A DNA stretch of 64,000 bases from Draconibacterium orientale (GCA_020718225.1 DYSO01000002.1:5361-69360); one strand, 5' to 3'. Shown: positions 12-60,264, counted from the first letter of the stretch. The notes: generated by a model from the sequence alone, not told the origin. Numbers and translations: made by a program.

Positions 12-153
12 GACAGGTTGGACAGGTTGAACAGGTTAACCTGGTTAACCTGGTTAACCCGGTTTAACATGGTCAACCTGGTTTAACCTGGTCCAACCTG
101 GTTTAACATGGTCAACCTGTTCCAACCTGTTCCAACCTGTTCCAACCTGTCAG
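12..153. repeat. Tandem array A: about 15 units of 9-10 nt. ACAGGTT-type units lie on the left, AACCTGGTT/AACATGGTC units in the middle and AACCTGTTCC units on the right. The ends are reverse complements of each other.
   Basis: Read directly: gacaggttg x2, aacaggtta, acctggtta x2, then aacctgttcc x3, then aacctgtcag. The right end overlaps the TGA stop (150-152, minus strand) of the transposase gene. Confidence 0.9.
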
Positions 154-713
154 TTTTCCAGGATGAACATTTTTATTTTTTCTTCATCTATTTCGGCAGA
201 GAGGTTTTCAGCAAGGGTTTTGCCATTATAAAAATATTTGGCAAGTTCCTCTTTGCAAATCAGACTTGGGCCGGAAGTAACGGTCGATCTGTACGATGAG
301 AACCGGTATCGTGAGTCATCATCGGCAATGCCATGTTTTCGGGCATTTTGATTGATATACCGGATCATTTCATAAAAATAATATTCCCGACGGATTTCAA
401 TACGCTTGAGTTTGAACTGAAACAATTTTCCTTCCTCTCCATTGTGGTTGTTATGCCCTTTGGCGTAAGCGTTGAAAAGTATGGAAAAAGGTCTGTACAG
501 GCTCCCTTCAGCATCACTTTTTATTCGCACCAGTAGATGAAGATGGTCTTTCAGAAGACAATAAGCATAGGTATCGGCAACAGGTGTGATATGCGATCGA
601 TATAGCCGAAGGAAAAACCGGTAATCTTCTTCATCTTCGAACAGTGGACCGCCATTTCTGGCCCGGTTATATATATGGTAATATTTTCCGGGCTCCAATA
701 ATAAAGTTTTCAT
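150..713 (-). CDS. IS200/IS605-type Y1 (HUH) transposase, RAYT-like
   Basis: 187-aa ORF. The HUH motif sits in KDHLHLLVRIK, and the catalytic-Tyr helix motif is MIRYINQNARKHGIA (the Y-x-x-x-N pattern typical of the Y1_Tnp / COG1943 family). It is flanked by repeat arrays. Confidence 0.8.
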   Translation of the reverse strand: MKTLLLEPGKYYHIYNRARNGGPLFEDEEDYRFFLRLYRSHITPVADTYAYCLLKDHLHLLVRIKSDAEGSLYRPFSILFNAYAKGHNNHNGEEGKLFQFKLKRIEIRREYYFYEMIRYINQNARKHGIADDDSRYRFSSYRSTVTSGPSLICKEELAKYFYNGKTLAENLSAEIDEEKIKMFILEN

Positions 714-822
714 AAGCAGTTTTTCTGCTTAATCGGAAAAACCTCAAAAAGTAATACGATTGTAAATTTTTTCCGAAAAATTCCAGATCCCCCTCTTTTT
801 CCTGTTAAACCAAGAAAAAACA

Positions 823-873
823 AGTTGACCAGGTTGACCAGGTTAACCTGGTTTAACCTGGTTTAACCTGTTA
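823..873. repeat. Tandem array B: 2x GACCAGGTT, a central GGTTAACC palindrome, then 2x AACCTGGTTT. It is an imperfect hairpin.
   Basis: Read directly: agttgaccaggttgaccaggttaacctggtttaacctggtttaacctg, followed immediately by tta, which is the stop codon of the minus-strand gene 871-3840. Confidence 0.9.
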
Positions 874-3840
874 CGGTTTATATACTACCCCCAGGTTCTT
901 TTTTCCGTCTATTGCAATCCGGATGGGTTTTTCGAAGTGGATGTGCCGGAGAAACTCATCTTCATAGGCTGCTGTTTGACCTGCCAGGTATTCAATATCA
1001 TAGAATCCATCGTTGATGAAAGGGTTTACCGTAAAATAGCCCACCCGGAATGAAGTGAGGTTTTGAAAAAAGTGGGTACCCTGGCTTGGGTCAATCCGGT
1101 AATGTTCGAGCCCCGATTCAACAATAAGCCTTGCTGCGCTGATCTGGGGCCATTTAACCGGGATTCCCAGCCATGGATCGCTGGAACCCCAGCGACCGGG
1201 GCCTACCAGTACATAATTTTTTTTCTCTGTTGTGAATTTATCGTTCAGCTTTTCAAGCAGATGAACTATTTCCTGGCTTTTTGAAGCATTAAAATTCTCA
1301 GGTTTTACGTAGACGAAATCGTGGATATTTTTAACGATGCCATTGCCCAGGGCAGTATTTGAAACCAGCAGCATATCTTCTTTACGGATATCTTCCGGCC
1401 GAAGGTTGATGGTTTCATCGCGTCCGGCGATGGGGCGGATCTGAAGCAAGCTGAAAATTTTGGGTTGTCCCTTGGGTAGATCGAGGTTTACCGCAAACTC
1501 AATTTCAACCGGTTTATTCATCTCCCGCTGACCTATTTCCAGCGCCTGGTTAAGAATTTCGGCCAAAGGAAAAGTATCATGATTAAGCAACTGCGAAAAA
1601 GTGATGATCCGTTTTCCATCGAATAAGGTCCCTTCTTTTAGTTGATGGCTCTCAAAATCAAAAGTTGATGCCACCATTTTCAAAGCGTTGTCATTTTCAG
1701 CATCCTTGATCCTCAGTTTCATGAGATTCACGGTATCATCCATGCTTGGTGCAAAACTCTCAGGACGGAGATCGAGGGCAAAAAAAGTTTTCTGTGTTTC
1801 ACTCAAGGCAAGGTCCGGAGTGGATAGTTGCAATATTTTTTTAGGATATTTCGGTGAAAACCGGATACCTATGCCACCATCAACGATATATTTCCCCAAT
1901 CCAAAAGCAATATTGGCAATGCCATCTTCTGGCTTCTCAGGGGCGATTGGATAAAAATTGATGGAACGGGCAACTCCCGAAATAGCCGGATAAAACCGAT
2001 CGCCATACTGGCGGCCGGTGACCTCCTGAAGCACAATCGCCATTTTTTCTTCGTCGATCATGTTAAGGGTCGCTGCCATGTATGATTTGCTATCTTTATA
2101 GTAGGCTGATGCATAAACACTTTTAATAGCATCCCCCAATTTATCGATCATGACCCGGTCGTTAAATTTAATATTTGGGATCATGTAGGTTGAATATATA
2201 CCTGCAAAAGGTTGATAATGTGAATCTTCGAGCAAACTTGAAGAACGGATCGCAATGGGGTTGTTGATACAGGAGATAAAACGGTACAGATCTTCATGGA
2301 TCCGGAAAGGCAACCTTGCTTTGACAAACCGCGCCAGAATATCTTTATCGCTCCGGTCGGAAAGGGCAATTTCATAGAGGTTGTTATCCTCCATAAACTC
2401 ATCAAAAATATCCGTTCCAAGAACCACTGTTCTGGGAATGGAAATAACAACATCCTCATACAGATCGGTAAGCCTGTTCCTTTTGATCAGGGAATCCAGA
2501 AATGCCAACCCCCGTGCTTTTCCGCCAATCGAACCTTCGCCGATACGGGCGAATTGCAGATATTCATCATAGCGGTCGCGGTCGAAATCGGCAATGACCC
2601 CTTTGGCTTTATTGATACGGAAAGCGGTGATGGAATCAAACAAATACCGTTTTGCTTCATCCATATCATTGGCGAATTCGGTTACCGATACTTCTTTAAA
2701 CATCTCGGCAATCGGGAATAAAGAGCGGGCATTCAACCATTTCGAAAAATGGTTCCGTTCCATATGATATAACAGGGAATCGTTCGGGATTTCAAAAATC
2801 TTATCCTGTAGTGATTTCAGGTCTACAGCCCGGGTGATCTCCCTTCCGTTTTTCGGATCGATGAAAATAAAATCGCCAAATGAAAAATATTCATTGATAT
2901 AATTCCGAAGTTCAATGGAAAGTGTTTTGGAAAGTTTGTTCAGGAACCCCACTTTCAGGTCATGGGCCAGGGTTTCGTATTCGGTATCGGTCGATTGAAA
3001 AAGAATGGGCATATAGGCATTTTCTGCACGGACTTTTTCAACGAATTTAATGCCTGCCGTTTTGTCGGTTACCCCGCCCCGCATAAAGCTGATATCGGTG
3101 ATAATCCCCAAAAGGTTTGCCTTATATTTTTCCCACATGCCAACGGCTTCTTCATAGTTGGTAGCAAGTAAAATTTTGCTCCGGCCACGCATCCTTAACA
3201 TTTTCTGGTGCTCGTTAAGGCCTTCGCTTACAGTAGTTTTCGATTGCTTCAGAAGAATTTTGTAAATATTTGGCAAATAGGTTGAATAAAAACGGATGGA
3301 ATCTTCAACCAGTAAGATGGCCTGTACCCCCTGTTTGACATCCTGGTCGATGTTCATTCTGTCCTCAATCAGTTTAATGATGGCCAACAGGATATCGGCA
3401 TTGCCAAGCCAGCTAAACACATAATCGATAGCGCTGAGGTCCTTTTCAACAAGTTTAAGGTTGACTTCGCGTGAAAAGGGAGTGAGTGCAACGATGGGTA
3501 TTGCCGGGTATTTTTTCTTGATCCGGATGGCCAGGTCGAAGGTGTCGGATTTTTCGATGTTCAGCATTGAAATAACCAATTCGACCCGCTTGTCTTCCAA
3601 CACTTCGAAGGCCTCTTCTTCCGAAGTGACTTTGAGAAACTGCGGCGGATAACGCAGGTTTAAAGAAACATATTCCAGAAAAATAGTCTCATCAATGCGG
3701 CCGTCTTCTTCCAGCATAAAAGCATCATAGGTGCTTGAAATAAGCAAGACCTGATATATCCGCCGTTTCATCAGAAGATTAAACGAGGTATCGATAAAGT
3801 AATACTTCTTCGGGTCCAGAACATTCTGTTTGTGCTTCAT
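871..3840 (-). CDS. Signal-transduction protein: pseudo-receiver + receiver + PEP/pyruvate-binding ATP-grasp domain (PPDK_N-like) + conserved C-terminal domain. It has no phosphohistidine swivel or PEP-utilizer TIM domain.
   Basis: 989-aa ORF. The first REC-like domain has VELVISMLNI, with no Asp at the acceptor position. The second has AILLVEDS, LLGIITDISF and PILFQST. ATP-grasp motifs are GGKARGLAFL, IRSSSLLEDS, PFAGIYSTY, and VEIEFAV followed by LLQIRP. The C-terminal domain carries GPGRWGSSDPWLGIPV and SQGTHFFQNLTS. It is a paralog of 10602-14477. Confidence 0.75.
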   Translation of the reverse strand: MKHKQNVLDPKKYYFIDTSFNLLMKRRIYQVLLISSTYDAFMLEEDGRIDETIFLEYVSLNLRYPPQFLKVTSEEEAFEVLEDKRVELVISMLNIEKSDTFDLAIRIKKKYPAIPIVALTPFSREVNLKLVEKDLSAIDYVFSWLGNADILLAIIKLIEDRMNIDQDVKQGVQAILLVEDSIRFYSTYLPNIYKILLKQSKTTVSEGLNEHQKMLRMRGRSKILLATNYEEAVGMWEKYKANLLGIITDISFMRGGVTDKTAGIKFVEKVRAENAYMPILFQSTDTEYETLAHDLKVGFLNKLSKTLSIELRNYINEYFSFGDFIFIDPKNGREITRAVDLKSLQDKIFEIPNDSLLYHMERNHFSKWLNARSLFPIAEMFKEVSVTEFANDMDEAKRYLFDSITAFRINKAKGVIADFDRDRYDEYLQFARIGEGSIGGKARGLAFLDSLIKRNRLTDLYEDVVISIPRTVVLGTDIFDEFMEDNNLYEIALSDRSDKDILARFVKARLPFRIHEDLYRFISCINNPIAIRSSSLLEDSHYQPFAGIYSTYMIPNIKFNDRVMIDKLGDAIKSVYASAYYKDSKSYMAATLNMIDEEKMAIVLQEVTGRQYGDRFYPAISGVARSINFYPIAPEKPEDGIANIAFGLGKYIVDGGIGIRFSPKYPKKILQLSTPDLALSETQKTFFALDLRPESFAPSMDDTVNLMKLRIKDAENDNALKMVASTFDFESHQLKEGTLFDGKRIITFSQLLNHDTFPLAEILNQALEIGQREMNKPVEIEFAVNLDLPKGQPKIFSLLQIRPIAGRDETINLRPEDIRKEDMLLVSNTALGNGIVKNIHDFVYVKPENFNASKSQEIVHLLEKLNDKFTTEKKNYVLVGPGRWGSSDPWLGIPVKWPQISAARLIVESGLEHYRIDPSQGTHFFQNLTSFRVGYFTVNPFINDGFYDIEYLAGQTAAYEDEFLRHIHFEKPIRIAIDGKKNLGVVYKP

Positions 3841-3882
3841 AACGCTATGTTTATCCGCGTTTTAACTCCATGAACAAAGGAT

Positions 3883-4338
3883 TTAATTTTCTCTCAGGAT
3901 ATAGTCATCGTATTCAACTTCAAACCGCAGTTTGTGTTTGGCCTCTTCCTGGGCGAGACTCAGAAATATACTACCGGTCCGGGAATCAGGGGCTGCTTCG
4001 GCTAATTCCGTGTACATCCGGTAGGCGGCCTTTTCCTTTTTCATGGCCAATATCAGGGCATCCTGATAGGTCATGTCCGGTGATGGTTTAATATCGACCA
4101 GGTATTCAGTTATTTTTAAGTCTTTGATTTTGGTCTCTGATAATTGAAAAGAACCATTTTCTTTTACTTTTATCAGATTTACTTTGTGGCGCATCTCCTC
4201 TTCGGCAAAATCGGTAAAGACCTCTTTGCTTTGTCTGCTTTTTGACTGACCGGCTAACATGAGATAAAAATCAACAGCAGCCTGTTCTTCCCCGATTGCA
4301 AAATCGAGGATATCTTCGATTGTTTTAAATTCTTTCAT
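3883..4338 (-). CDS. Rubrerythrin/ferritin-like diiron protein without a rubredoxin domain
   Basis: 151-aa ORF with two E-x-x-H diiron motifs (AEEEMRH, AQEEAKH) plus glutamates in GEEQAAVDFY. It is co-directional with the upstream oxidoreductase genes, with a 29-nt gap. Confidence 0.65.
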   Translation of the reverse strand: MKEFKTIEDILDFAIGEEQAAVDFYLMLAGQSKSRQSKEVFTDFAEEEMRHKVNLIKVKENGSFQLSETKIKDLKITEYLVDIKPSPDMTYQDALILAMKKEKAAYRMYTELAEAAPDSRTGSIFLSLAQEEAKHKLRFEVEYDDYILREN

Positions 4339-4367
4339 ATGGTTTTATTTAATTTTTTGATCCCTGT

Positions 4368-8072: not shown

Positions 8073-8085
8073 TGGGATAAGTATT

Positions 8086-8131
8086 GGTGAGGGGTGAGTG
8101 GTGAGTAGTGAGTGGTGAGTGGTGAGTGGTG
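8086..8131. repeat. Tandem array C: 6.5 units of the heptamer GGTGAGT
   Basis: Read directly: ggtgagg ggtgagt ggtgagt agtgagt ggtgagt ggtgagt ggtg, then tta, the stop of gene 8132-9907. The array ends 13 nt before the next start codon at 8072. Confidence 0.9.
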
Positions 8132-9907
8132 TTATGATAGTAAGATAGCATCGAACTTGCATTTTGAGTAGCAAACGCCGCATTTCGTACAGATATTCTG
8201 ATTGATTGTGTGGGGTTGTTTACGTTCTCCTGTGATGGCTTGTACCGGGCAGTTTTTCAGGCAAACCATACAGCCCGTGCATTTTTCGGTATCTACCCGA
8301 TAGGTCAACAAAGGTCGGCAAACCTTTGCCGGACATTTTTTATGGCGGATATGGGCTTCATATTCATCGCGAAAATAACGGATGGTAGTCAATACCGGGT
8401 TGGGGGCTGTTTGCCCTAAACCGCATAACGAATTTTCTTTAATCTGAAAGGCCAGTTCTTCCAGTTTTTCGATATCCCCTTCCTGACCCTGTCCATTGGT
8501 TATGCGATCGAGGATTTCCAGCATCCGTTTGGTCCCCATCCGGCAGAAAGTACATTTACCGCAACTTTCTTTACGGGTAAAGTCGAGAAAAAATTTTGCC
8601 ACATCCACCATACAGGTAGTTTCATCCATAACCACCATTCCTCCCGATCCCATAATGGCACCTGTGGCATTGACCGAATCATAATCAATGATGGTATCGG
8701 CCAGGAATTCGGGGATACAACCACCCGATGGGCCTCCCATCTGTACCGCTTTAAACTTTTTATCGTTTTTTATCCCCCCCCCAAGCTTAAAGATGACCTC
8801 CCGGATGGTCATTCCCATGGGGACTTCAACAAGTCCTGAATGACGTATTTTTCCGGCCAATGCGAAAACTTTGGTCCCTTTGCTTTTTTCGGTTCCGTAT
8901 TGTGCATACGCTTCGGCACCGTTCATGATGATCCATGGGATATTGGCAAAGGTCTCCACATTATTGATGTTGGTGGGCTTTTTCCAAAGACCGGAAACTG
9001 CCGGAAACGGAGGCCGTTTGCGGGGCATTCCGCGTTCGCCTTCGATGGAGGCGATCAGGGCCGTCTCTTCACCACAAACAAAAGCGCCTGCCCCCTCTTT
9101 GATATAAATATCGAAATTAAACTCTTCTATTCCGAAAAGATTTTTTCCGAGATAGCCCCTTTCATGAGCCTGTCGGATGGCAATATTTAACCGCTTGATG
9201 GCAAGCGGATATTCAGCGCGGCAATAGATTACACCTCCTGTGGCGCCGATGGCATAAGCAGCGATGACCATCCCCTCAAGTACCAAATGGGGATCGCCCT
9301 CCAATACAGAACGATCCATAAAAGCGCCGGGATCACCCTCATCGGCATTGCAAATAATATATTTTTCGGCCGATTTATTGGCATGGGCAAATTTCCATTT
9401 CATCCCCGTGGGAAACCCACCGCCCCCACGACCACGCAACCCCGACCTGAGAACCGTATCAATCACCTCTTCCTGCCGCGTCTTTTCTGCGGCAATTTTT
9501 TTTATCGCCAGATACCCTTTCCGTTTTTCATAATCGTCGATGGATTCAGGATCCATATACCCGCAATTCCGGAGTACTATTTTAACCTGGGATTCCAGGA
9601 AATCATTTTCGGGAGCATCAAATAAATCGGTATAAACAATATAATCGCGAATGGGATCGTGCTGATTGATGTGTTTTTCGATGACTTCGATGGCGCGATC
9701 GGCATCTACCTCCCCATACAGATAGGTCCCGGTATCATCGGTAATCTCAACCAAAGGCTCACGGTAACACATGCCCACACAACTGGTTTTCCGAAGTTCA
9801 AAATGTAAGTTTTCGGTCTCCTTTAGCGCCTGGATCTTTTCAAAGGTCTTTTTTGCACCGGCAGCAATGCCGCAACTTCCAAGACCAACTGTGACGGTAG
9901 GTATCAT
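8132..9907 (-). CDS. NuoF/HydB-like NADH-binding FMN/Fe-S subunit with an N-terminal thioredoxin-like [2Fe-2S] domain and a C-terminal 2x[4Fe-4S] ferredoxin domain
   Basis: 591-aa ORF. Motifs: GLRGRGGGGFPTGMKWKF (FMN/NADH site), ESCGKCTFCRMG (N3-type cluster), CTGCMVCLKNCP and CTKCGVCYSKC, and an N-terminal GLGSCGIAAGA followed by CVGMCYREP. Confidence 0.85.
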   Translation of the reverse strand: MIPTVTVGLGSCGIAAGAKKTFEKIQALKETENLHFELRKTSCVGMCYREPLVEITDDTGTYLYGEVDADRAIEVIEKHINQHDPIRDYIVYTDLFDAPENDFLESQVKIVLRNCGYMDPESIDDYEKRKGYLAIKKIAAEKTRQEEVIDTVLRSGLRGRGGGGFPTGMKWKFAHANKSAEKYIICNADEGDPGAFMDRSVLEGDPHLVLEGMVIAAYAIGATGGVIYCRAEYPLAIKRLNIAIRQAHERGYLGKNLFGIEEFNFDIYIKEGAGAFVCGEETALIASIEGERGMPRKRPPFPAVSGLWKKPTNINNVETFANIPWIIMNGAEAYAQYGTEKSKGTKVFALAGKIRHSGLVEVPMGMTIREVIFKLGGGIKNDKKFKAVQMGGPSGGCIPEFLADTIIDYDSVNATGAIMGSGGMVVMDETTCMVDVAKFFLDFTRKESCGKCTFCRMGTKRMLEILDRITNGQGQEGDIEKLEELAFQIKENSLCGLGQTAPNPVLTTIRYFRDEYEAHIRHKKCPAKVCRPLLTYRVDTEKCTGCMVCLKNCPVQAITGERKQPHTINQNICTKCGVCYSKCKFDAILLS

Positions 9908-10557: not shown

Positions 10558-10601
10558 CACCTGTCCAACCTGTCCACCTGTCCAACCTGTCCAACCCGTT
10601 C
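10558..10601. repeat. Tandem array D: 5 units of C(A)ACCTGTC, ending in CAACCCGTTC
   Basis: Read directly: cacctgtc caacctgtc cacctgtc caacctgtc caacccgttc, then tta, the stop of gene 10602-14477. It lies 47 nt upstream of the nuoE-like start. Confidence 0.9.
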
Positions 10602-13600
10602 TTACTTTTCCTCTTCCCAGGTAATGACCGAAATACGTTTCTTTCCGTCCATTCTGATACAGAGCGGGTGGTCAAAATGGATGATTGAGAAAAAATCTGT
10701 TTTCCTTAGATTTTTCTGGCTTTTTAAAATATCATATCGGATAAAACTGTTGGTCAATTCAGGCTGGATGCAAAAGTAACCCACATTCATAGAGGTTACA
10801 TTATGGAAAAAATGAGATCCTGACGAGGCATCGAGTGGAAATCCTTCAAGGCTGGTTTCGACAATGATCTTGGCATGGCTGATCTGAGGCCATGCAACCG
10901 GGATACCAATCCAGCGGTCGCGTGTGCCCCATCGTCCCGGGCCAATCAGGACATAATTTTTTCCCTCTCTTCCCATCTCAGCATTAATGGTATCAATCTC
11001 CGCCGCCATTTCAACGGTCTTCGATTTGTCGAAGGTATCCGGATCTACAAAAATTACATCGTAAATATTGTCAATCAATCCGTTGCCCATCTCTTTTTCA
11101 GAATACAGAAGGATTTGGTCCCGGTTGATCTTCTCCATATCAATATGAAAATCGGTAGCATTGCCGATCAGTGGTTTTATCTGAAGCAGATAGAAAGAAG
11201 CTTTATTATCGTCATCCTTGTTCAGATCGATGGCAAACTCCATTTCCACCGGTGAACCCAGCGCCTCTTTGACTACATCGAGCACCACTTCAATGGTTTT
11301 TGCAAGGGGAATATAGTTGTATTTTAAAATATCGGCAAAGTTGAGTACCCGCGGGCCGCCATCGCGTAATCCGGCAGTAATCCGATCATTTTCAACGGAA
11401 TAAACCGAAGCGCAGTGCTTCAGGGTCCCATGCATTTCGGCATCGTAGATATCCATTTTCCGAAGGCCGGCATCTTCGCCTTCCAACAGGTTCATCTCCT
11501 TTTTTTGCAGATCCACGGCATAAAAATAGACCTGCGACCCTTTGTACTGATCCTTTGGCGAATTGATTTCAAGAGTTGGATACAAGGGTGAAAAACGGAA
11601 TGCCTTTTCTCCCTCAACCACATAGCGTCCAAGGCCTAATGCAATTACGGCAAACCCCTCTTCGGGTTTCATATGGGCAAATGGATAATAATTATAGGAT
11701 TGGGCAACTCCGCTGATATGTGGATAGTACACATCGGCATATTGGTTTCCGACGACCTCCTGGATTACAACGGCCATCTTTTCCTGCTCTATGCGATAAT
11801 TAACCGCTTCGATGTACCCCTTGGCAATGGGGGAATACACGGAAGCATAAACCAGTTTGATTGCATCCATCAATTGATCAAGCCGCACTTTTGGGTCCGG
11901 ATGACAATTGGGGATCAGGTAGGTTTCGAAGATTCCTGCAAAAGGCTGATTAAGAGAATCTTCAAAGAGTCCGGAAGAACGTATTGCCAAAGGCTTCGTG
12001 ATATTTTTAATGATTAATTTCAACTTCCGGATAAGGGTTTCTGTGAGCCTGCCTTCCAAAAACCACCTTTTTATCTGGTCATAATCTGACTCATAGACTG
12101 CTTTTTCCCTCAATTTATTCCTGTCAAGGAAATATTCAAATTCATCGGTACCCACAATGGAGGTTTTCGGGGTACGGATTTTAATGTTGGGGATGTGTTG
12201 AGAAAAATCGTAATTGTATATTAACGTGTTGATAAAAGCGAGCCCGCGTCCTTTTCCCCCCAACGCCCCTTCGGTCAGCGCCAGGATATTACGTTCGTCG
12301 GATATAGCCGATTCCTCAAAAGGGATCACCTTCCCGGTATTTTGTTCGTTGCGGAAATGCTGGATCACATTGATGAGGTATTCGCGTAACGAAGTCGGAT
12401 CTTTAAAATCGGTCACTTTTGCCGGGTTCAGTATCTTGGCAACCTGAATTTCTCCACGGGCCATCAGCCAAAGGGAGAAGTGGTCTTTCCGTGCATGATA
12501 TAAGAGAGATTCTTCCGGGATGGTCTTTAGTAAATCCTCAAATTCTTTCAGCGAACGTGCAACAGCGATCTGGGTACCCTCCTGATCGCGATAAATAAAA
12601 CTGCCAAATCCCAGATAATGGGTAATGAAACTTTTAAAATCAAGAAGCAGGGTTTCTGAATTTTTATTAATAAAAGAGGCTTTTAATTCATATGCTCTCT
12701 GGGCATTAATTTCATCGGACGACTGCATCACAATGGGAAGGTCTTTAATCTCCTTCCGGGTCTGCCTGACCAGGCTGAACCCCGCCGTATTGTTCAGTTT
12801 GCCATCCTTTTTAAATTTCACATCTGAAATGAGACAAAGGATAAAGTCTTTGTACTTGTTAAAAATATAGAGGGCCTCTTCATAAGTTGAGGCCAATAGA
12901 ATTTTCGGTCGTGCTTTCAGTCTGAGGATGCGGTACAATTCATCGGTAGTAACATCCTCAATGATGTTTTTAGTCTGTTCCAGCACGATATTGTACAACA
13001 TCGGAAGGTATAATGAATAATACTTTGAGGAATCTTCTACCAGCAGGATGACCCGTGTCATGCCAATGGTGGTATCGTTTTCCACATTGATTTTGTCTTC
13101 CAGATAGTTGATCATTGCGAAGAAGATCTTGGAATCGCCATTCCAGACAAAAATCCGGTCGACCCAGGTCAGTTTTTCAGGTTCTTCTTCATATTTAGCG
13201 ATCTCTGTATTGCTGTTCAATAAAAGGAATACGGGAATATACTGATATTTTTCCTTGACGGTTTTACTCAGTTCTACCGGGAATTGTTTATCCGTACCGA
13301 TCATGATGATGATCAGGTCGTAATGTTTCAGACTGAGTTGTTCCATTACCTCACCGATCGTTGATACACCGGTGATCCGTGGCATGGTACTCAGGCTCAG
13401 TGCATAAAATTCCCCCAGTACATGTTCTGAAAAACGGCCTTCCTTTTCGATGCTATAAGCGTCATAGAGATTGGCGACCAATAATATCTCTTTGACTTTA
13501 AAAGGCATCAGGTCATGATACAGGTCGCGGTTATAGTTGGTACGATTTAAAAAGGTCTGGAGGAGTTGACGGCTGTATTTAACCGGGCCGGAAGCATCCG

Positions 13601-16121: not shown

Positions 16122-16147
16122 TCACCTGATTTTGTTTATAATCCAAA

Positions 16148-16180
16148 GGGGGATCCGGGATACCGGGTCCCCCTGTTTTT
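16148..16180 (+). terminator. Rho-independent terminator of gdhA, shared by the convergent gene pair
   Basis: gggggatccgg-gata-ccgggtccccc forms an 11-bp stem (one G-U pair) with a GATA loop, followed by tgttttt. It lies 27 nt after the gdhA stop. Confidence 0.8.
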
Positions 16181-24437: not shown

Positions 24438-25388
24438 ATGACCCATGTCCTGCAACAAACCAACTTCAACTTTCCCGGCATGAAAAGCCTTTATAAAGGA
24501 AAAGTCAGGGATGTATATAATATTGATAATCAATACCTGGTGATGGTTGCCAGCGACCGGATATCCGCATTCGATGTTGTTTTGCCCCGGGGAATCCCAT
24601 TCAAGGGACAGGTGCTGAATCAGATTGCCTCAACATTTCTCGATGCAACAGCCGATATTTGTCCCAACTGGAAAGTTTCAACCCCCGATCCGAATGTGAC
24701 CATTGGTCGTTTTTGTTCAATTTACCCGATAGAGATGATCATCCGCGGCTACCTGACCGGAAGTTCATGGCGTACCTACCAGAAAGGCATCCGCACCATT
24801 TGTGGCGTACAGGTCCCCGACAACATGAAAGAACATCAGCGTTTCCCTGAACCCATCATTACTCCCACAACCAAAGCCGCAGAAGGGCACGACGAAGATA
24901 TAACCAGGGAAGAAATCATCGCCCGGGGCTTTATTCCGAAGGAAACGTATGAATGCATCGAAAAATATACCTCAGCCTTGTTCCGGCGGGGCACAGAAAT
25001 CGCTGCCTCCAAGGGACTGATCCTTGTTGACACCAAGTATGAATTCGGGAAAGGGGCCGATGGTAAAATTTATCTCTGCGACGAAATCCACACCCCCGAT
25101 TCTTCCCGTTATTTTTATCTTGATGGTTATGATGAACGCCAGGCAAAAGGCGAACCCCAACGGCAACTATCCAAGGAATTCGTGCGTGAATGGCTTATGG
25201 CCAATGGATTCATGGGAAAAACAGGACAGCAGGCGCCCGGGATGAGCGATGCCTGGATCCACGAAATCTCTGACCGTTACATAGAACTTTATGAAACCAT
25301 CACCGGCGAACCATTCATCAGGGCAGATACCGAAAACCTTCAGGAACGCATTGAAAAAAGCATAAACAACTGGCTGAAAAACCGATAA
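24438..25388 (+). CDS. purC: Phosphoribosylaminoimidazole-succinocarboxamide (SAICAR) synthase
   Basis: 316-aa ORF with [19 protein letters not shown] and [11 protein letters not shown], which matches the long-form PurC. Confidence 0.9.
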
Positions 25389-25451
25389 TTCGTTATTAGA
25401 TTACCGGAATTCAATATTCGGAATTCGGTATTCTTCATTAAATAAGCTTCC

Positions 25452-27276: not shown

Positions 27277-27446
27277 TTTTTAAAACTGCTTATCCCTTTC
27301 GGTCAGGCCAGATTAACGGCCATAAAATAAATTACCCCTGGCTTTTGCGCGTCTTCCATTTAAATGCCTTAATTTTTCGCCATGTCGAAGGCACCTCATC
27401 CCCCTAACCCTCCTCCCAAGTGTGAAGGAGAACCTCTCTCCAGTCC

Positions 27447-27488
27447 CACCTGTCCACCTGTTCCACCTGTCCACCTGTCCAACCCGTC
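27447..27488. repeat. Tandem array E: 5 units of CACCTGT(T)C, ending in CAACCCGTC
   Basis: Read directly: cacctgtc cacctgttc cacctgtc cacctgtc caacccgtc, then cta, the stop of gene 27489-28604. It has the same unit family and terminal unit as array D. Confidence 0.9.
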
Positions 27489-28604
27489 CTACTCCACCCG
27501 AATCAATTTCTGCACGGTTTTAGAGTTACCCGATGTAAGTACACAAAGGTAAACACCCGGAGCGCCGGCGCCGGCATTCCATGTAACTTTATGGTATCCG
27601 GAGGGGAGTATCTGACTGATCAGTGTATCCTTCAGTACACCCGTATTATCATACACCATCAGGGTAACCGGAGTATTATCATGCCTGATTTCGAAAGCAA
27701 TGGTCGTCTCCCTGATGAAAGGGTTAGGGAAGTTAGGGAGCAGCCGGGGTTTTCCCAGGTCAACCGGTACCTGGACGGAAAGAGGGTAAAATACCGGACT
27801 TCCAGCCTGGACCCAGGCGGTATAAATTAGGTCGGCAAGCGATCCTGAAGCGCGCCGCAACAAATCGATGGTAAAAAGTCCTGTTTTGTTCCACAGCGCC
27901 TGGTAGTAGGCGTCGGAATTGTTATTCCCTGCTTCGGCCCGGGCTTCATTATCAGCAATCATAATGCTATCGACATATTGATAATTAAAGTAAAGGCTGG
28001 AGAATACAAAACTGCTGACATCGTTGATATAGTGAACCGAGTCTGCCGGATATATAAGCATCGCTTCATAACGGCTGATCATCCGGGACTCATACCGGGA
28101 ATGGACCCCATTCTGACCGGTATATTGACCGTCGTAGTTCCTTGTAATGTGCAGGGGCATGTGTCCGTCACCCACATAATGACCCAGGTCGGCTGCGAAC
28201 AGTGCCGATTTCAGCCAATCATGACGTTCAAAACAGGCCTTGAGTGAATCGAAGGTGATCAGGGTTGCCCAGGGTAAAATTCCCTGGTCTATCACAAAAG
28301 CGTAACCATGTAATGCAACAACGCTATCAAAACGGGTTGGGATATGACCGGTTTGCAAAAATTCGGGGTAGTTGTCGATATCGATATAATGTTTTGGCGA
28401 CTCGTTCGGATCGGTATCTTTACGGTTATCGGCCTCGGAGGCATATAAAGTTACAATGTTGGTCCAGTCGGGCTTCAGGAAGGAAAGACGGACAGGAAAA
28501 AAGTTGGCGGTATTCTGGTTGATGACCCGGTGGCCTTTGTATCCCCAACCGGAAAAAATTACACCAAGGAAAACCAATGGGAGGATAAGCCTGAGTTTTT
28601 TCAT
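27489..28604 (-). CDS. Secreted S1/P1-type zinc nuclease family protein with a T9SS C-terminal sorting domain
   Basis: Signal peptide. S1-P1 motifs are WGYKGHRVI (WGxxGH), HYVGDGHMPLH (HxxGDxHQPLH) and GVHSRYE. The C-terminal 80 aa (FPNPFIRETT through GVYLCVLTSGNSKTVQKLIRVE) form a Por secretion tail. Confidence 0.75.
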   Translation of the reverse strand: MKKLRLILPLVFLGVIFSGWGYKGHRVINQNTANFFPVRLSFLKPDWTNIVTLYASEADNRKDTDPNESPKHYIDIDNYPEFLQTGHIPTRFDSVVALHGYAFVIDQGILPWATLITFDSLKACFERHDWLKSALFAADLGHYVGDGHMPLHITRNYDGQYTGQNGVHSRYESRMISRYEAMLIYPADSVHYINDVSSFVFSSLYFNYQYVDSIMIADNEARAEAGNNNSDAYYQALWNKTGLFTIDLLRRASGSLADLIYTAWVQAGSPVFYPLSVQVPVDLGKPRLLPNFPNPFIRETTIAFEIRHDNTPVTLMVYDNTGVLKDTLISQILPSGYHKVTWNAGAGAPGVYLCVLTSGNSKTVQKLIRVE

Positions 28605-45320: not shown

Positions 45321-45433
45321 GGACAGGTTAAAACAGGTTAAAACAGGTTAAACAGGTTAAAACAGGTTAAAACAGGTTAAACAGGTTAACTTGGTTAACT
45401 TGGTTAACTTGGTTAACTTGGTTAACTTGGTTT
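45321..45433. repeat. Tandem array F: 7 units of ACAGGTTAA(A) followed by about 5 units of CTTGGTTAA
   Basis: Read directly. The TAA stop of ccmC (45422-45424) lies inside one CTTGGTTAA unit, and the last partial unit encodes the final codons (K-P-S). The array ends 7 nt from the ccmD start. Confidence 0.92.
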
Positions 45434-54383: not shown

Positions 54384-54489
54384 ATTGCAATGATTAAATA
54401 ATTGTATAACAGAATGTTAACAAAGTTTCGAAAGGATTGGGCCAATGACCGGGTTACAAAAATACAATTATTCACTTCATCTTATTATA

Positions 54490-54497: not shown

Positions 54498-54524
54498 CAC
54501 GGGTGCACAAAGGGCATAAAGGGC

Positions 54525-55985
54525 ATGATGAAAAAACTTGATCTGTTTATCCTAAAATCCTATCTCGGGCCATTGGTGATGACCTTTTTTATCGCCCTGT
54601 TTATCCTTTTAATGCAATTTGTATGGAAGTACATCGACGACCTTGTTGGCAAAGGGCTTGAATGGTACATCATTGTGAAATTGCTGTTTTATGCGTCATC
54701 CACTTTTGTCCCCCTTGCCCTTCCTCTGGCTATTTTACTGTCGTCGCTGATGATGTTCGGAAACCTGGGTGAACACTATGAACTGGTAAGCATGAAGGCT
54801 GCCGGGATCAGCCTGAACAGGATCATGCGCCCGCTGATTGTTGTCTCGGTTATGATCAGTATGCTGGCTTTTTATTTTGCCAATGTCGTCCTGCCGGTAG
54901 CCAACCTCAAATTTTTATCCCTTCTTTACGATGTCAGGGAAAAAAAACTGGCTTTCAACCTGAAAGAGGGGGTTTTTTATGATGGTATCGAAGGGTTTGT
55001 GATCCGGGTAGGAGAAAAAGACAACGATGGCAATACCATACGCGATGTCATGGTTTACGACCATACCAAACATCTGGGAAACATTTCCCTTACGGCTGCA
55101 AAATGGGGAAAAATGGAACTTTCACCCGATAAACGCTACCTTGTATTCAGACTTTTTGACGGCACCAACTATGAAGAACGGATTGACCTGAGGGGCAATG
55201 AACTGACCCGGCCCTTTCAACGGACCCGGTTTTCTGAACAATATCAAATGTTTGACCTCTCCACGTTTCAACTGACACGAACCGATGAAAATTTATTCAA
55301 GAAAAATTACGAGATGCAAAACATAGATCAGTTGAGCAAATCCATCGATTCTATTAAAAACCAACTTAAAACCGATAAGCTAAACTACGATCTGGGATAC
55401 ACCAATAACCTGCCATTGTATAGCCTGCTTGTCACCACCCGTTCTCCGGATACCAGTCCCCCGGATACCTTAAAAAACGTAAAACCGAAAAAATTCATTG
55501 CCGACATCCTCACCTATTTTCCTTCTAAAGAACAGTTGGCAATCCTGGAAACAGCCAAAAACAGCGCTGTTAACGTCAAACAGAACCTCGACATCCAGCA
55601 TGATAACCTCTTGACAAAAAGCAAATTGATATACAACCACCAGATTGTTTTTCATAAAAAGTTTGCTTTTTCCTTTGCCTGTTTTCTTCTTTTTTTTATC
55701 GGGGCGCCATTGGGGGCCATAATCCGTAAAGGGGGACTGGGAATGCCGGCTGTGATTTCAACCCTTTTCTTCATTCTGTACTGGGTCATATCTTTCATGG
55801 GCGAAAAATATTCGGCAGAAGGGGTACTACCCTCCTGGCAGGGCATGTGGATATCTTCTGCCGTGCTCCTTCCCATCGGTATTTTCCTTACCATTAAGGC
55901 GACCAACGATGCTTCATTGCTTGATATAGACGCATGGACCCGCTTTTTCAACAAATGGTTTAACCTTCCCAAACGGCGGCTATGA
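54525..55985 (+). CDS. LptF/LptG family permease (YjgP/YjgQ)
   Basis: The start is at MMKKLDLFILKSYLGPLVMTFFIALFILLMQFVW, typical of this family. It has three N-terminal TM helices, a periplasmic beta-jellyroll region and three C-terminal TM helices. Confidence 0.75.
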   Translation: MMKKLDLFILKSYLGPLVMTFFIALFILLMQFVWKYIDDLVGKGLEWYIIVKLLFYASSTFVPLALPLAILLSSLMMFGNLGEHYELVSMKAAGISLNRIMRPLIVVSVMISMLAFYFANVVLPVANLKFLSLLYDVREKKLAFNLKEGVFYDGIEGFVIRVGEKDNDGNTIRDVMVYDHTKHLGNISLTAAKWGKMELSPDKRYLVFRLFDGTNYEERIDLRGNELTRPFQRTRFSEQYQMFDLSTFQLTRTDENLFKKNYEMQNIDQLSKSIDSIKNQLKTDKLNYDLGYTNNLPLYSLLVTTRSPDTSPPDTLKNVKPKKFIADILTYFPSKEQLAILETAKNSAVNVKQNLDIQHDNLLTKSKLIYNHQIVFHKKFAFSFACFLLFFIGAPLGAIIRKGGLGMPAVISTLFFILYWVISFMGEKYSAEGVLPSWQGMWISSAVLLPIGIFLTIKATNDASLLDIDAWTRFFNKWFNLPKRRL

Positions 55986-57289
55986 AGATTCTTTTTTTAT
56001 GCAATAAATCGCCCTGGCCCCCGAAGGAAGGAGGGCCGATGGCCATGAATATGCTGGTGGAAGGCCTTCTGGCTGACGGCCATTCAGTAAAAGTGCTTGC
56101 CGTTAATTCATTTAAATACAACATCAACCTTTCGGACATCCCGCTCCCTTACCGGGAACAAACTGCCATTGAACTGATCCATGTCGATCTGAAACTCAGG
56201 CCATGGAAAGGGTTGACCAACCTTATAACCGGACAATCCTACCATGTGCAACGGTTTATTTCTGCAAATTTCAGAAAAAGGCTGGAAGAGATACTTCACC
56301 AGGAGGAGTATGATATTGTTCAATTGGAGACGCTCTTCATGAGCCCTTACATCGAAACGGTCCGGAACCATTCCCGTGCACGGATCCTACTCAGGGCACA
56401 CAATATCGAACACCGCATCTGGGAAAGGGTAGCCGATGATACGAAAAACCCTCTTCGCCGCTGGTATATCCGGCATCTCGCAAAAACCCTGAAAAGCTAC
56501 GAGCATAAGGTCATTCCTTCCTTCAACGGGATCATCGCCATCACTCCGACCGATGCTGAATATTTCACAGGACTGGCCGTAAAGAATCAAAAATCAAGAT
56601 TCAATATTCAAGTTTCAATTCAGAACCCGGACGAAACAGATAAAGTAAAACTACCACCCCATACCAATGATCCGATACCTGACAACCTTTTTCCTCCCGT
56701 AATCGACATCCCTTTTGGTGTTGACCCGGCGACCTACTCAGTAAACCAGGATGCCATAGAATTTCCTTCCCTTTTCACGTTGGGGGCCATGAACTGGATT
56801 CCCAACCAGGAAGGGGTCCGATGGTTTTTACAAAATGTTTGGCCCGATATCCACAAGGAATTTCCTTCCCTGAAATACTATCTGGCCGGCAGGGAGATGC
56901 CCCCATGGATGCACAACCTTAACCTCGACCAGGTAGTGGTATTGGGTGAGGTGGAAGATGCCCGTGAATTTATCTCCTCCAAAGCGGTGATGATCGTCCC
57001 GTTGTTTTCGGGAAGCGGCATCCGGATTAAAATTATCGAAGGGATGGCTTTGGGAACCGCGATCATATCTACAACCACAGGCGCTGAAGGGATCGATTAC
57101 AAGAAAAACGAAAATATCCTGATCGCCGATAGCCCCTGCGAATTTTTTGAAATGATCTCCATTGTTGTCCGGGACCGGGATTTGTGCCAAAGGATCGGGA
57201 AAGAGGCCCGAAAATTAATTGAAACAAAATACAATTCAGAAATCCTGATCCAAAAACTTATCGCTTTTTATAAACAACTCGCCCGGTAA
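55982..57289 (+). CDS. Glycosyltransferase family 4 (GT-B, Glycos_transf_1)
   Basis: 435-aa ORF whose ATG overlaps the upstream stop (ATGA). It has MKILFLCNKSPWPPKEGGPMA at the N-terminus and the E-x7-E region PLFSGSGIRIKIIEGMALG. Confidence 0.75.
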   Translation: MKILFLCNKSPWPPKEGGPMAMNMLVEGLLADGHSVKVLAVNSFKYNINLSDIPLPYREQTAIELIHVDLKLRPWKGLTNLITGQSYHVQRFISANFRKRLEEILHQEEYDIVQLETLFMSPYIETVRNHSRARILLRAHNIEHRIWERVADDTKNPLRRWYIRHLAKTLKSYEHKVIPSFNGIIAITPTDAEYFTGLAVKNQKSRFNIQVSIQNPDETDKVKLPPHTNDPIPDNLFPPVIDIPFGVDPATYSVNQDAIEFPSLFTLGAMNWIPNQEGVRWFLQNVWPDIHKEFPSLKYYLAGREMPPWMHNLNLDQVVVLGEVEDAREFISSKAVMIVPLFSGSGIRIKIIEGMALGTAIISTTTGAEGIDYKKNENILIADSPCEFFEMISIVVRDRDLCQRIGKEARKLIETKYNSEILIQKLIAFYKQLAR

Positions 57290-57301
57290 TGCACTTTTTT
57301 A

Positions 57302-57309
57302 TATTTTTG
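57302..57309 (+). promoter_or_regulatory. Bacteroidota -7 promoter box (TAnnTTTG) for the second glycosyltransferase
   Basis: TATTTTTG lies 19 nt upstream of the ATG at 57329. Confidence 0.5.
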
Positions 57310-57328
57310 CCTGCTACAAGCTATCTTC

Positions 57329-58489
57329 ATGCGAATATTTTTTCTTTTACCACGGGTCCCCTATCCTACTGAAAAGGGAGATAAATTAAGGGCCTTTCAT
57401 CAGATCAAACATCTTTCAAGACATCATGAAATTATACTCTGTGCCTTGAACGACGGGGTATTACATGAAGACGCCATCCCTGTATTAAAAAAATATGTGA
57501 AGGCCGTCCATATTATCCCTATTTCCAAAATTACCATTGTTTTTAACCTTATCAAGGCCTTGTTCTCCTGGAAACCTTTACAGGTAGGGTATTTTTACAA
57601 TTCATATTCGGTGAGGAAAGTCCATAAACTGATCGATCAGTACAAGCCAGACCATATTTTCTGTCAGCTTATCCGGGTTGCAGAATATGTTAAAGATATT
57701 CCCATTCCAAAAACGCTCGATTATCAGGACGTTTTCTCGAAAGGGGTTGAGCGGCGACTGGCCATTTCCCCTTTTTATCTGAAACCCTTTCTGAAAATCG
57801 AATATCAAAGGCTTCTCCGCTATGAACACATGGCATTTGAAGCCTTTGACCATAAGATCATAATCTCTGCGCCCGACCGCGACCTGATCCCCCATCCTGA
57901 TAAAAATAAAATTGTGGTTGTTGCCAATGGCGTTGATACCGACTTTTTCAAACCCGTGGAAGCCCGGAAACAATTCGACCTGGTCTTCACGGGGAACATG
58001 GGTTATCCACCCAACATCAAAAGCGCTGAATTTTTAGTCAATGAAATCCTCCCAAAAATAAGAGCGCACAAACCCGACCTCCGGTTGCTGATTGCCGGCG
58101 CAAATCCCCATCTTCGCGTTATGGTACTGAAATCACCACAGATAGAGGTCAGCGGATGGGTCCCCGATATGCGCGACTGCTACGCGGCTGCCCGGATTTT
58201 TATTGCCCCCATGCAAATCGGCACAGGACTGCAGAATAAATTGCTGGAAGCAATGGCCATGCAGATTCCCTGCATTACCTCCCCTCTGGCATTCCACGCA
58301 CTGAACGCAAAAGAGGGAGAAGAAATTCTGGTTGCCAGTACCCCCGACGAATACGCCCGTCATATCTTGTTCCTGTTGAATAATCCTGAAAAAGCACAGC
58401 AAATCGCAAAAAAAGGTTTCGATTTTGTCCACCGGAATTTCAATTGGGATAACGAGACCGATAAAATAGAGCGATTGATAGGGAGGTGA
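57329..58489 (+). CDS. Glycosyltransferase family 4 (GT-B, Glycos_transf_1)
   Basis: 386-aa ORF with MRIFFLLPRVPYPTEKGDKLRAFHQIKHLS and PMQIGTGLQNKLLEAMAMQIP. Confidence 0.75.
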   Translation: MRIFFLLPRVPYPTEKGDKLRAFHQIKHLSRHHEIILCALNDGVLHEDAIPVLKKYVKAVHIIPISKITIVFNLIKALFSWKPLQVGYFYNSYSVRKVHKLIDQYKPDHIFCQLIRVAEYVKDIPIPKTLDYQDVFSKGVERRLAISPFYLKPFLKIEYQRLLRYEHMAFEAFDHKIIISAPDRDLIPHPDKNKIVVVANGVDTDFFKPVEARKQFDLVFTGNMGYPPNIKSAEFLVNEILPKIRAHKPDLRLLIAGANPHLRVMVLKSPQIEVSGWVPDMRDCYAAARIFIAPMQIGTGLQNKLLEAMAMQIPCITSPLAFHALNAKEGEEILVASTPDEYARHILFLLNNPEKAQQIAKKGFDFVHRNFNWDNETDKIERLIGR

Positions 58490-58534
58490 GACGGGTTGGA
58501 CATGGGGACAAATTTTTTTAAATAAAACAGGGAT

Positions 58535-60211
58535 ATGTCCGACGATCGTAAAATCATCTTTTCCATGGTGGGTGTCTCCAAGAGTTATCCACCGCACAAA
58601 CAGGTACTGAAAAACATCTACCTTTCCTTCTTTTATGGGGCAAAAATCGGAATCATTGGCCTGAATGGGTCCGGTAAGTCAACATTAATGAAAATCATTG
58701 CCGGCGTTGAAAAATCGTTTCAGGGAGAGGTTGTTTTTTCACCCGGATACTCCGTGGGATATCTTGAACAGGACCCTTATCTGGACGACTCAAAAACCGT
58801 CAGGGAAATTGTAGAAGAGGGGGCCGGCGAAATAGTAAGCCTTCTCAAAGAGTACGAAACGGTCAACAACAGGTTCTCAGAACCCATGAGCGACGATGCG
58901 ATGGAAAAGCTCATCAACCGGCAGGGAGAACTTACGGAATTGTTAGACCAACACAATGGCTGGGAACTCGACAGCAAGCTTGACCGGGCCATGGACGCCC
59001 TCCGCTGCCCGGAGCCTGATTCGCCGGTTAAAAATTTATCGGGGGGCGAACGCCGCCGGGTTGCTTTGTGCCGTTTATTATTGCAGGAACCCGACATCCT
59101 GCTGCTCGATGAACCTACCAACCACCTTGACGCCGAATCGGTACAATGGCTTGAACTCCACCTGCAACAATACAAAGGGACTGTAATTGCCATCACCCAC
59201 GACCGCTATTTTCTCGATAACGCTGCCGGATGGATCCTGGAACTCGACCGTGGGGAAGGAATACCCTGGCAGGGAAATTATACCTCCTGGCTGGAACAGA
59301 AATCGACCCGCCTGGCCATGGAAGAAAAAACAGAAAGCAAACGCCGCAAAACCCTGGAACGGGAGCTGGAATGGGTCCGCATGTCCCCAAAAGCACGTCA
59401 GGCAAAGGGAAAAGCCCGTCTGAATGCCTATGATAAAATGATGAGCGAAGATATCAGGGAAAAAGAAGAACGTCTTGAATTATATATCCCCAATGGTCCC
59501 CGGCTGGGAAACCGGGTGATTGAAGCCATTGACGTTTCCAAATCATTCGACGACAAACTGCTTTTCGAAAAATTGAATTTTTCCCTTCCCCCGGCCGGGA
59601 TCGTGGGTGTTATCGGAGCCAACGGAGCAGGAAAAACAACACTCTTCCGCATGATCATGGGAGCAGAAACGGCATCTTCCGGTTCATTCTCCATCGGCGA
59701 AACAGTCAAAATAGGATATGTGGATCAAAGCCACACCGCCATCGACCCTGAAAAAACCGTTTTCCAGGTGATTTCCGGCGGGGCTGAAAACCTTCAAATG
59801 GGGGGCCGTACCATGAGCGCCCGCGCCTATGTTGCACGATTTAATTTCAGTGGCGCCGACCAGGAAAAAAAATGCGGCGTGCTGTCCGGCGGCGAACGCA
59901 ACCGCCTGCACCTGGCCCTGACCCTGAAAGAAGAGGCCAATGTCCTGCTCCTTGATGAACCAACCAACGACATCGATGTCAATACCCTTCGCGCCCTCGA
60001 AGAGGGATTGGATAATTTTGCCGGTTGCGCGGTGATCATCTCCCACGACCGATGGTTTCTCGACCGGATCGCTACCCATATCCTGGCTTTTGAAGGCGAT
60101 TCTCAGGTAGGTTTCTTTGAAGGGTCCTTTTCTGACTACGAAGAAAATAAGAAAAAAAGAATGGGCGATGATACGCCACACCGGATCCGGTATAAAAAGC
60201 TTAAGGGATAG
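58535..60211 (+). CDS. ettA: Energy-dependent translational throttle ABC-F ATPase EttA
   Basis: 558-aa ORF with two ABC cassettes (GLNGSGKST and LSGGERRRVAL; GANGAGKTT and LSGGERNRLHL). The EttA-type N-terminus is IFSMVGVSKSYPPHKQVLKNI, with an arm/linker region. Confidence 0.92.
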   Translation: MSDDRKIIFSMVGVSKSYPPHKQVLKNIYLSFFYGAKIGIIGLNGSGKSTLMKIIAGVEKSFQGEVVFSPGYSVGYLEQDPYLDDSKTVREIVEEGAGEIVSLLKEYETVNNRFSEPMSDDAMEKLINRQGELTELLDQHNGWELDSKLDRAMDALRCPEPDSPVKNLSGGERRRVALCRLLLQEPDILLLDEPTNHLDAESVQWLELHLQQYKGTVIAITHDRYFLDNAAGWILELDRGEGIPWQGNYTSWLEQKSTRLAMEEKTESKRRKTLERELEWVRMSPKARQAKGKARLNAYDKMMSEDIREKEERLELYIPNGPRLGNRVIEAIDVSKSFDDKLLFEKLNFSLPPAGIVGVIGANGAGKTTLFRMIMGAETASSGSFSIGETVKIGYVDQSHTAIDPEKTVFQVISGGAENLQMGGRTMSARAYVARFNFSGADQEKKCGVLSGGERNRLHLALTLKEEANVLLLDEPTNDIDVNTLRALEEGLDNFAGCAVIISHDRWFLDRIATHILAFEGDSQVGFFEGSFSDYEENKKKRMGDDTPHRIRYKKLKG

Positions 60212-60264
60212 AGAAGTAGCGAGGTAGCGAAATAGCGAGGTAGCGAAATAGCGAAATAGCGAAA
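60209..60264. repeat. Tandem array G: 7 units of the octamer TAGCGARR (the first unit is degenerate), strictly 8-nt periodic
   Basis: Read directly: tagagaag tagcgagg tagcgaaa tagcgagg tagcgaaa tagcgaaa tagcgaaa. The TAG of the first unit is the ettA stop codon (60209-60211). Confidence 0.9.

Follow-up and report, generated by a model that had tools for sequence, protein, structure and literature searches.

Tandem arrays of 7-10-nt units anchored at stop codons in an environmental Bacteroidales genome and its relatives

Heptamer arrays with the units GGGNATC and GGGGA(C/T)T, mostly non-coding, have been described in Xanthomonas and Nostoc (Rehm et al, 2015, PLoS One, PMC4692102). They lie close to stop codons or overlap them on the coding strand, are rare between divergent open reading frames (ORFs), commonly form inverted pairs and occupy the same intergenic sites in related species with varying length and sequence, and no function was detected for the GGGNATC repeats (PMC4692102). 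Here we analyse a window of 64,000 nucleotides, the whole stretch of DNA under study (GCA_020718225.1, DYSO01000002.1:5361-69360, recorded as Draconibacterium orientale), in which seven tandem arrays of short units, named A to G, each begin at or overlap the stop codon of the upstream gene. The EttA protein of the window is 90% identical to that of lake and sediment metagenome-assembled genomes (MAGs), and the host is an uncultured Bacteroidales bacterium. The arrays resemble those of Xanthomonas and Nostoc in their short tandem units, stop geometry, rarity in divergent spacers and inverted pairs; the statement of the original prediction that no described class of element has this property was wrong, as stop proximity had been reported for the GGGNATC heptamers. 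The earlier system, however, is one family with G3 tracts, G-quadruplexes and a preference for four units, whereas many unrelated families of 7-10 nt are found here in a different phylum. Most lack G-tracts, and units such as ACAGGTTGG, CACCACT, CCAAGTTAA and TAGCGAAA are not of the GGGNATC type; moreover, the first unit often contains the stop, and some arrays are located in protein loops.

Several other classes of repeats share part of these features. REPs are imperfect palindromes of 20-40 nt. The arrays are similar to REP, BIME and REPIN elements with their RAYT transposases in their location at extragenic 3' ends and in convergent spacers and in the dispersal of their families; the window strain also has inverted arrays on both sides of a RAYT gene that is single-copy and vertically inherited. 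They fall outside the REP class in that they are tandem 7-10-mers, most of them incapable of forming a hairpin (in the window, folding is restricted to the inverted pairs A and B), and the RAYT orthologues of six other genomes have no arrays beside them. The cyanobacterial STRR sequences, attributed to Mazel and colleagues in 1990, are reportedly tandem heptamers of several unit families in the non-coding DNA of one lineage; the taxon and the unit sequences are different here. TAACTGA heptamers are found in Beggiatoaceae, cyanobacteria and some Bacteroidetes; most are in forward orientation and shortly precede a start codon, and a binding site for a translational regulator was proposed (MacGregor, 2015, PMC4679880). 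They too are intergenic tandem heptamers, sometimes in mixed arrays, that vary between strains in steps of 7 nt and reach some Bacteroidetes, but they have a single unit sequence and are start-proximal, whereas the units here differ and the gap is ~1-2 nt to the stop and ~10 nt to the ATG. Long simple-sequence repeats (LSSR) share the class of 5-11-nt units with common heptamers, the patchy phylogeny and a proposed origin by slippage, according to the section of PMC4679880 that summarises them. That section does not list Bacteroidales among the LSSR-rich taxa of the survey by Mrazek et al (2007), and it makes no mention of stop-codon anchoring. The arrays consist, as LSSR do, of head-to-tail units (7-10 nt) in runs longer than expected by chance, with copy-number polymorphism between close strains, and they are best explained as long simple-sequence repeats of the same kind as LSSR, STRR heptamers and GGGNATC arrays, present lineage-wide in one group of environmental Bacteroidales.

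Arrays were called in the window with Tandem Repeats Finder (TRF), which gave periods of 7-10, 2.8-11.6 copies and 76-100% matches, and stop codons were placed via ORF lists, Pfam hits and direct reading of the sequence. All seven arrays of the original prediction were recovered in this way. Array A (12-149, minus strand; TRF and sequence) is formed by the ACAGGTTGG / GGTTAACC family as an inverted pair and occupies all 136 nt between two convergent stops, at 11-13 (plus) and 150-152 (minus). The latter ends the upstream gene, a RAYT-like ORF, and the former, a TGA, belongs to a metallophosphatase gene truncated by the window edge and is a second stop abutted by the array. Array B (824-870, minus; TRF and sequence) lies directly 3' of the TAA at 871-873 of a PPDK_N/response-regulator gene and runs as (CAGGTTAAAC)n and then (CCTGGTCAA)n, forming a hairpin that is followed by UUGUUUUUU. 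Array C (8085-8131, minus; TRF), which reads (CACCACT)6.7 in sense orientation, sits in an operon-internal spacer extending from the stop of a NuoF-like gene (8132-8134) to the next ATG at ~8072. In array D (10558-10601, minus), GAACGGGTT is followed by (GGACAGGTK)4; TRF reports 10558-10596, and a degenerate first unit carries this end out to 10601, directly 3' of the TAA at 10602-10604 of a second PPDK_N gene. Array E (27437-27488, minus; TRF 27443-27489) is composed of GACGGGTT and then (GGACAGGT)n, directly 3' of the TAG at 27489-27491 of a nuclease-like gene with a type IX secretion system (T9SS) tail. The stop is part of the repeat itself in the remaining two. The first CCAAGTTAA unit of array F (45323-45432, minus; TRF), which is built as (CCAAGTTAA)5 and then (CCTGTTTTAA)7, holds the last two codons of ccmC and its TAA (45422-45424), and 9 nt separate the end of the array from the ATG of the CcmD_alt gene (45313). 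The ettA stop, TAG at 60209-60211, is inside a ATAGAGAA/GTAGCGAG unit of array G (60208-60265, plus; TRF), written (RTAGCGAR)7, with the wobble base of the last codon also in register.

This placement exceeds what chance would give. When the position of each array is drawn uniformly from the spacer in which it lies, gaps of ≤2 nt have a joint probability of P = 2e-7, and in none of 20,000 trials of random placement over the window's 37 spacers (4.3 kb) were at least five of the seven arrays at a stop. No array was found in any divergent (promoter) spacer of the window. Comparative loci (designated by L-numbers) were flanks of up to 10 kb from related genomes and metagenome contigs; of the 29 array clusters in those that are independent of the window, 16 begin between -25 and +8 nt from the stop of an ORF of at least 100 codons, against a null expectation of 5.9 ± 2.1. 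The zero-gap rule put forward originally thus holds for seven of seven arrays in the window and is strong in relatives, but it is not universal, as ~55% of the clusters are stop-anchored there. The pattern recurs in sister strains and related genomes, which excludes both chance and an artefact of assembly: the stop-anchored arrays are real and robust.

Comparison of orthologous gene ends shows that both the presence of an array and its number of units vary between close strains. The flanking proteins of sister strains are 99-100% identical (RAYT 99% in L081-L083, EttA identical in L218), and the arrays are hypervariable. Array G has 7.2 copies in the window against 3.5 in L218, and the site of array C carries (CACCACT)6.7 in the window and (TCACTAT)10.4 in L081/L087. 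The PPDK gene ends, depending on the strain, in (CAGGTTAAAC)n, in (CGGGTTGGACAGG)6.8, in 2.4 units or in no array at all (L087), and a 39-nt (AACCTGTCC)n lies in L081-L083 between the same two convergent stops as array A. In the spacer upstream of ettA, the window has a remnant only and L218 a complete inverted pair, (ACAGGTTGG)3 + (TGTCTAACC)3. Further afield, several of the ettA ends in the 17 closest MAGs have arrays directly past the stop with unrelated units: AATGCACG and GTGAAATG in L001, TCACGAC in L003, in register with its own TGA, ATTGCCATNT and CAGTTCAC in L006, ATTTACG and CGTAAAT in L011. The spacer between the glycosyltransferase gene and ettA contains arrays in nine of 13 genomes, every unit being different. 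Convergent spacers are filled from stop to stop by array A and in L082, L084 (13252-13293) and L093 (19214-19255); in L084, a contig of a 3.5-Mb record (ctg82139c) from a different assembly, the array starts one base past the stop and fills a 44-nt convergent spacer. In a separate observation, the co-occurring L081 and L087/L088 apparently have their first ~9.8 kb in common, judging from gene spacing and an identical array at the NuoF end, with RAYT genes that are only 78% identical and PPDK 3' spacers that differ, a mosaic that suggests recombination or strain mixing at the locus.

The stop codon changes together with the array. The RAYT gene ends in AAC-TGA-CAGGTTGG in one strain and in AAC-TAA-CCTGTCC in another, the protein end being kept, and the PPDK stop is TAA or TAG between strains with protein length kept; in array-free orthologues, the C-termini of EttA and PPDK are conserved to the last residue. 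Together with the stop and, in ettA, the wobble base lying in unit register, this fits the earlier idea that repeats expand from gene ends. Units with a stop triplet (F, G and GCGAATA in L013) overlap the stop codon, and those without one (C, D, E) begin immediately after it. The F and L013 arrays also cover the last sense codons, with a C-terminal extension of three residues in L013, and G covers only the wobble base of the last codon. Array-free spacers between the glycosyltransferase gene and ettA measure 16-45 nt in the 13 genomes, and array-bearing ones 30-93 nt, of which 53-96% is array, with a median gap of 1-2 nt to the stop and of ~10 nt to the ATG. Arrays are therefore added DNA and not a replacement of existing sequence, and the short array-free orthologous spacers rule out the idea of a spacer constrained in length. 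In the metagenome sample, degeneracy is higher at the two edges of an array than in its middle, a profile expected from slippage. Other candidate explanations were discarded. A polarity of growth, suggested by a CGGG variant at the stop-proximal edge, is not general, the variant being equally frequent at both edges in the metagenome arrays. Stop triplets are held by four of eight units against a roughly estimated expectation of ~37%, which gives no signal of a stop trap in all frames, and CRISPR-like arrays or coding repeats are excluded, as the units follow one another without spacers and the arrays in question lie outside ORFs.

The rule nonetheless has limits, and four weaker repeats in the window show that the original list of seven was incomplete. 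A decayed ACAGGTT mini-array, GACGGGTTGGACATGGGGACA (58490-58510, plus), directly follows the TGA at 58487-58489 of the glycosyltransferase gene upstream of ettA, and a period-16/32 direct repeat (60810-60872, plus; TRF) overlaps the stop of a DUF6016 gene at 60833-60835. A weak CGGAATT array (25405-25433, plus; TRF) begins 16 nt past the stop at 25386-25388, and a degenerate AAGATTC array (56582-56618, plus; TRF) lies within the glycosyltransferase ORF at 55982-57289. Some arrays extend to 0-6 nt from the next ATG, AATTTTG-type arrays in Rikenellaceae-like loci lie 60-96 nt past the stop and near the next start, and the second or third array of one spacer is necessarily far from the stop by its position. 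Arrays within ORFs occupy conserved, length-variable loop positions with the frame kept (glycosyltransferase in the window, L002 and L006; hisS in L006, L009 and L011). In the glycosyltransferase, tandem heptamer arrays encode a hypervariable loop past the conserved DAEYF motif; different arrays are found at the same protein position in L002 (1045-1104) and L006 (1091-1174), and that of L006 is translated into a repeated SSVIRHP peptide. The hisS ORF, encoding histidyl-tRNA synthetase, bears 7-8-nt arrays at one conserved position with an open frame (L006 5366-5442, L009 4986-5076, L011 5654-5690), those of L011 being the inverted pair GGATGCA / TGCATCC. AATTTTG/AATTCTC heptamer arrays are also seen 4-23 nt 5' of start codons in the Alistipes/Tidjanibacter-like loci L031, L034, L036, L041, L048, L068 and L080; they contain TTTG, resembling Bacteroidetes promoter motifs, and may be a different, start-proximal class of array.

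Folding of ten arrays separates strong hairpins from completely unstructured sequences, and these two classes mean that the arrays have no common RNA structure. Array A folds with -71.8 kcal/mol (z = -7.5), array B with -25.7 kcal/mol (z = -4.6), its hairpin being followed by the U-run of UUGUUUUUU, and the inverted pair upstream of ettA in L218 with -38.6 kcal/mol. The minimum free energy is 0 kcal/mol for array C and -8.2 kcal/mol for array E, the latter not above shuffled sequence (z = +0.46), and the structures of array G and the L084 array are likewise no better than those of shuffled sequence. No Rfam match at the gathering score was obtained anywhere in the window. The shape of an intrinsic terminator, a hairpin with a U-run, is present in B, and there is no hairpin in C, E or G; a scan for terminator and promoter patterns gave matches no commoner than in shuffled sequence and is hence uninformative. 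G-quadruplexes were considered and set aside, with weak two-quartet predictions only, for array E and the PPDK array of L081, and none for C, D and G. Other genes of the window have ordinary hairpin-plus-T terminators at their ends. A perfect bidirectional hairpin terminator, GGGGGATCCGGGATACCGGGTCCCCC, stands at 16122-16178 between convergent genes, so that ordinary terminators coexist with the arrays.

We propose that these are slippage-driven arrays expanding in an unconstrained zone that begins at the stop codon, an account to which we give about an even chance of being correct. The arrays would gain and lose units through slipped-strand mispairing or unequal exchange, with inner units homogenised likewise, and would survive only where the sequence is free to vary. 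Past a gene, this free zone would open at the stop codon and close at the next functional element, whether the ~10-nt translation-initiation region, a terminator or promoter, or a convergent stop. As duplication of a segment that includes the stop would be harmless, arrays could begin in or at it, while an overrun of the stop would be selected against unless the unit brings an in-frame stop. Neutral arrays would in this manner be pinned at the stop by selection, and the expected outcome is a zero-gap geometry with a degenerate first unit bearing the stop. Inverted pairs may form long hairpins incidentally, so that array B with its U-run would look like a terminator, and direct arrays would be unstructured spacers. 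This proposition is supported by the added DNA that fills spacers, by the convergent spacers occupied from one stop to the other, by the different boundaries of units with and without a stop triplet, by the hypervariability between strains, by the co-variation of the stop and by arrays in tolerant loops and their absence from divergent spacers. The degenerate edges, the lack of a shared structure or Rfam match and the precedent of Rehm et al (2015) are also in its favour.

A series of observations weighs against an explanation by purely local, neutral slippage. Recurring unit families are not predicted by it, and non-orthologous sites of one genome share ACAGGTT (six or more sites in the window), AATGCACG (two in L001), GATGCAG (three in L011) and TAGCGAA (four in L013). 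TAGCGAA is common to the window, L013, L102, L162 and L166, and GGTGAAAT and AATCGTA are each found in several MAGs. Scanning of metagenome contigs with the pattern GGACAGGT(N)GGACAGGT(N)GGACAGG yielded 120 loci with 26-73% GC, in which 19 GGACAGGT arrays that start within ~9 nt of the stop of a long ORF are in mRNA sense and four in antisense. The glycosyltransferase-to-ettA site bears an array in nine of 13 genomes despite complete turnover of the unit, which selection could explain, and B, E and G stand at the stop in long terminal spacers, where the functionality of the remaining spacer has to be assumed. Finally, a short palindrome-containing element (27393-27436, minus; its end matches GGGTTAGGGGGATGAGG) adjoins array E and shares an 18-nt exact match with a 56-nt element that lies twice inside ACAGGT arrays at only one other locus, the unrelated L168. 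The family recurrence, the orientation bias of GGACAGGT and the palindromic element leave room for an RNA-level function or a mobile element. The ~56-nt element of L168 (2400-2514) is present there as two tandem copies with the palindrome CCCCCTTCTCCC-TTGG-GAGAAGGGGG, and the copy in the window is a diverged one.

One such function would be that of a selected mRNA element past the stop, serving as a 3'-exonuclease barrier, a terminator, a platform for RNA-binding proteins or, in the GGACAGGT family, a two-quartet G-quadruplex, or one that might modulate termination or re-initiation. The preference of GGACAGGT arrays for the sense orientation past stops, seen in contigs of 38-67% GC, speaks for it, as do the repeated presence of arrays at corresponding gene ends of different genomes in spite of unit turnover, the very stable hairpins of inverted pairs with the U-run after B, the weak G-quadruplex potential predicted for E and the L081 PPDK array, and the report that transcripts start or stop at such repeats more than at control repeats (Rehm et al, 2015, PMC4692102). 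We nevertheless regard it as unlikely. Array C has no predicted fold (0 kcal/mol), the structures of E, G and the L084 array are at the level of shuffled sequence, unit sequences are unrelated between families with inconsistent purine or G content, arrays also lie within ORFs, and other genes of the window have ordinary hairpin-plus-T terminators. The selected function just past the stop that the original prediction offered as its second option is thus a candidate only, there being no shared RNA structure, a 2-3-fold copy variation beside identical proteins, and presence or absence of arrays between close strains. Rather improbable, in our estimate, is a family-specific, sense-oriented class of 3'-UTR elements that a trans-acting factor, the conserved RAYT or a different protein, would spread between gene ends and that would act at the RNA level. 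If it were true, such elements could, for example, protect 3' ends or tune termination and re-initiation, and the class would span several phyla, as GGACAGGTN arrays follow stops in contigs of 38-67% GC.

The neighbouring RAYT gene offers a possible vehicle, with the arrays as its REP/BIME-like cargo and unit families spreading between gene ends. The ORF at 150-713 (minus; 187 aa) is a RAYT-like HUH/Y1 transposase homologue with a full-length hit to NCBIfam NF047646 (E = 1.9e-11) that scores 44 bits where the curated cutoff is 80, and its homologues carry the JGI name RayT. It is flanked in the window and in L081 by ACAGGTT-family arrays (A and B in the window) in inverted orientation, the classic RAYT/REP layout. 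REPs favour 3' gene ends and convergent spacers, families of units are dispersed within genomes, and ACAGGT arrays at two unrelated loci have the palindromic element beside or within them. We consider this origin improbable, however. The RAYT gene is single-copy and syntenic across genomes at 57-99% identity, with flanking arrays in the window and L081-L083 and none in L084, L087, L090, L093, L220 and L224; these six array-free loci, and the fact that both flanks are ordinary 3' gene ends (the estimated chance that both carry the dominant family is ~7%), indicate that the association is probably coincidental. Direct arrays such as C, D, E and G are moreover unable to form the hairpin recognised by Y1 enzymes, and several unrelated families coexist with only one RAYT seen. 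Alternatively, mutagenesis specific to the stop could be invoked, in which the exit of the ribosome uncouples transcription, and R-loops or exposed non-template DNA promote slippage from the stop. The zero gap in the long spacers of B, E and G and the sense (non-template) location of the G-rich strand in the GGACAGGT family are consistent with it, but arrays that lie in ORFs or reach start codons need no stop, the Rikenellaceae-like arrays lie well past theirs, and it appears to us quite improbable. As for an assembly artefact or a chance coincidence, short-read contigs often break at arrays, ending inside or just after them (L216, L217, L219 and the end of L081). The arrays are, however, shorter than a read, and independent assemblies agree, including GCA_973786475.1 at NCBI (L215), whose locus is identical to the window at the ccmC array. 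The arrays of L084 in a different assembly also argue against an artefact of the window's own assembly. With these and P ~2e-7 for chance, we hold this explanation to be extremely improbable and already refuted.

The surroundings of the RAYT gene have further features of their own. A hairpin, AAGCAG-AAAAA-CTGCTT, lies at 714-730 (minus), directly 5' of the RAYT ATG at 711-713; it is conserved in L081, L087, L093 and L220 and not in L084, L090 and L224, and it may act in translational control or as a binding site for the RAYT protein. A second Y1_Tnp (PF01797) gene, of 141-146 aa, is located directly upstream of the RAYT homologue in L084 (9564-10004), where the two overlap, and in L090 (9569-9994), where they are 6 nt apart; it is absent from the window.

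Stop-anchored arrays, previously described as one G-rich heptamer family in Xanthomonas and Nostoc, now appear as a multi-family phenomenon that is lineage-wide in environmental Bacteroidales. At the practical level, arrays break short-read assemblies and yield spurious ORF calls, such as the small ORF placed by gene callers on an array at 10604-10723 of L081; they also alter stop codons and occasionally C-termini, and can serve as strain-level markers. The array can even include the stop codon, which then changes along with the repeats. The model of expansion in a free zone, for which the stop would be the first fixed point, may provide a simple account of the evolution of bacterial 3' spacers.

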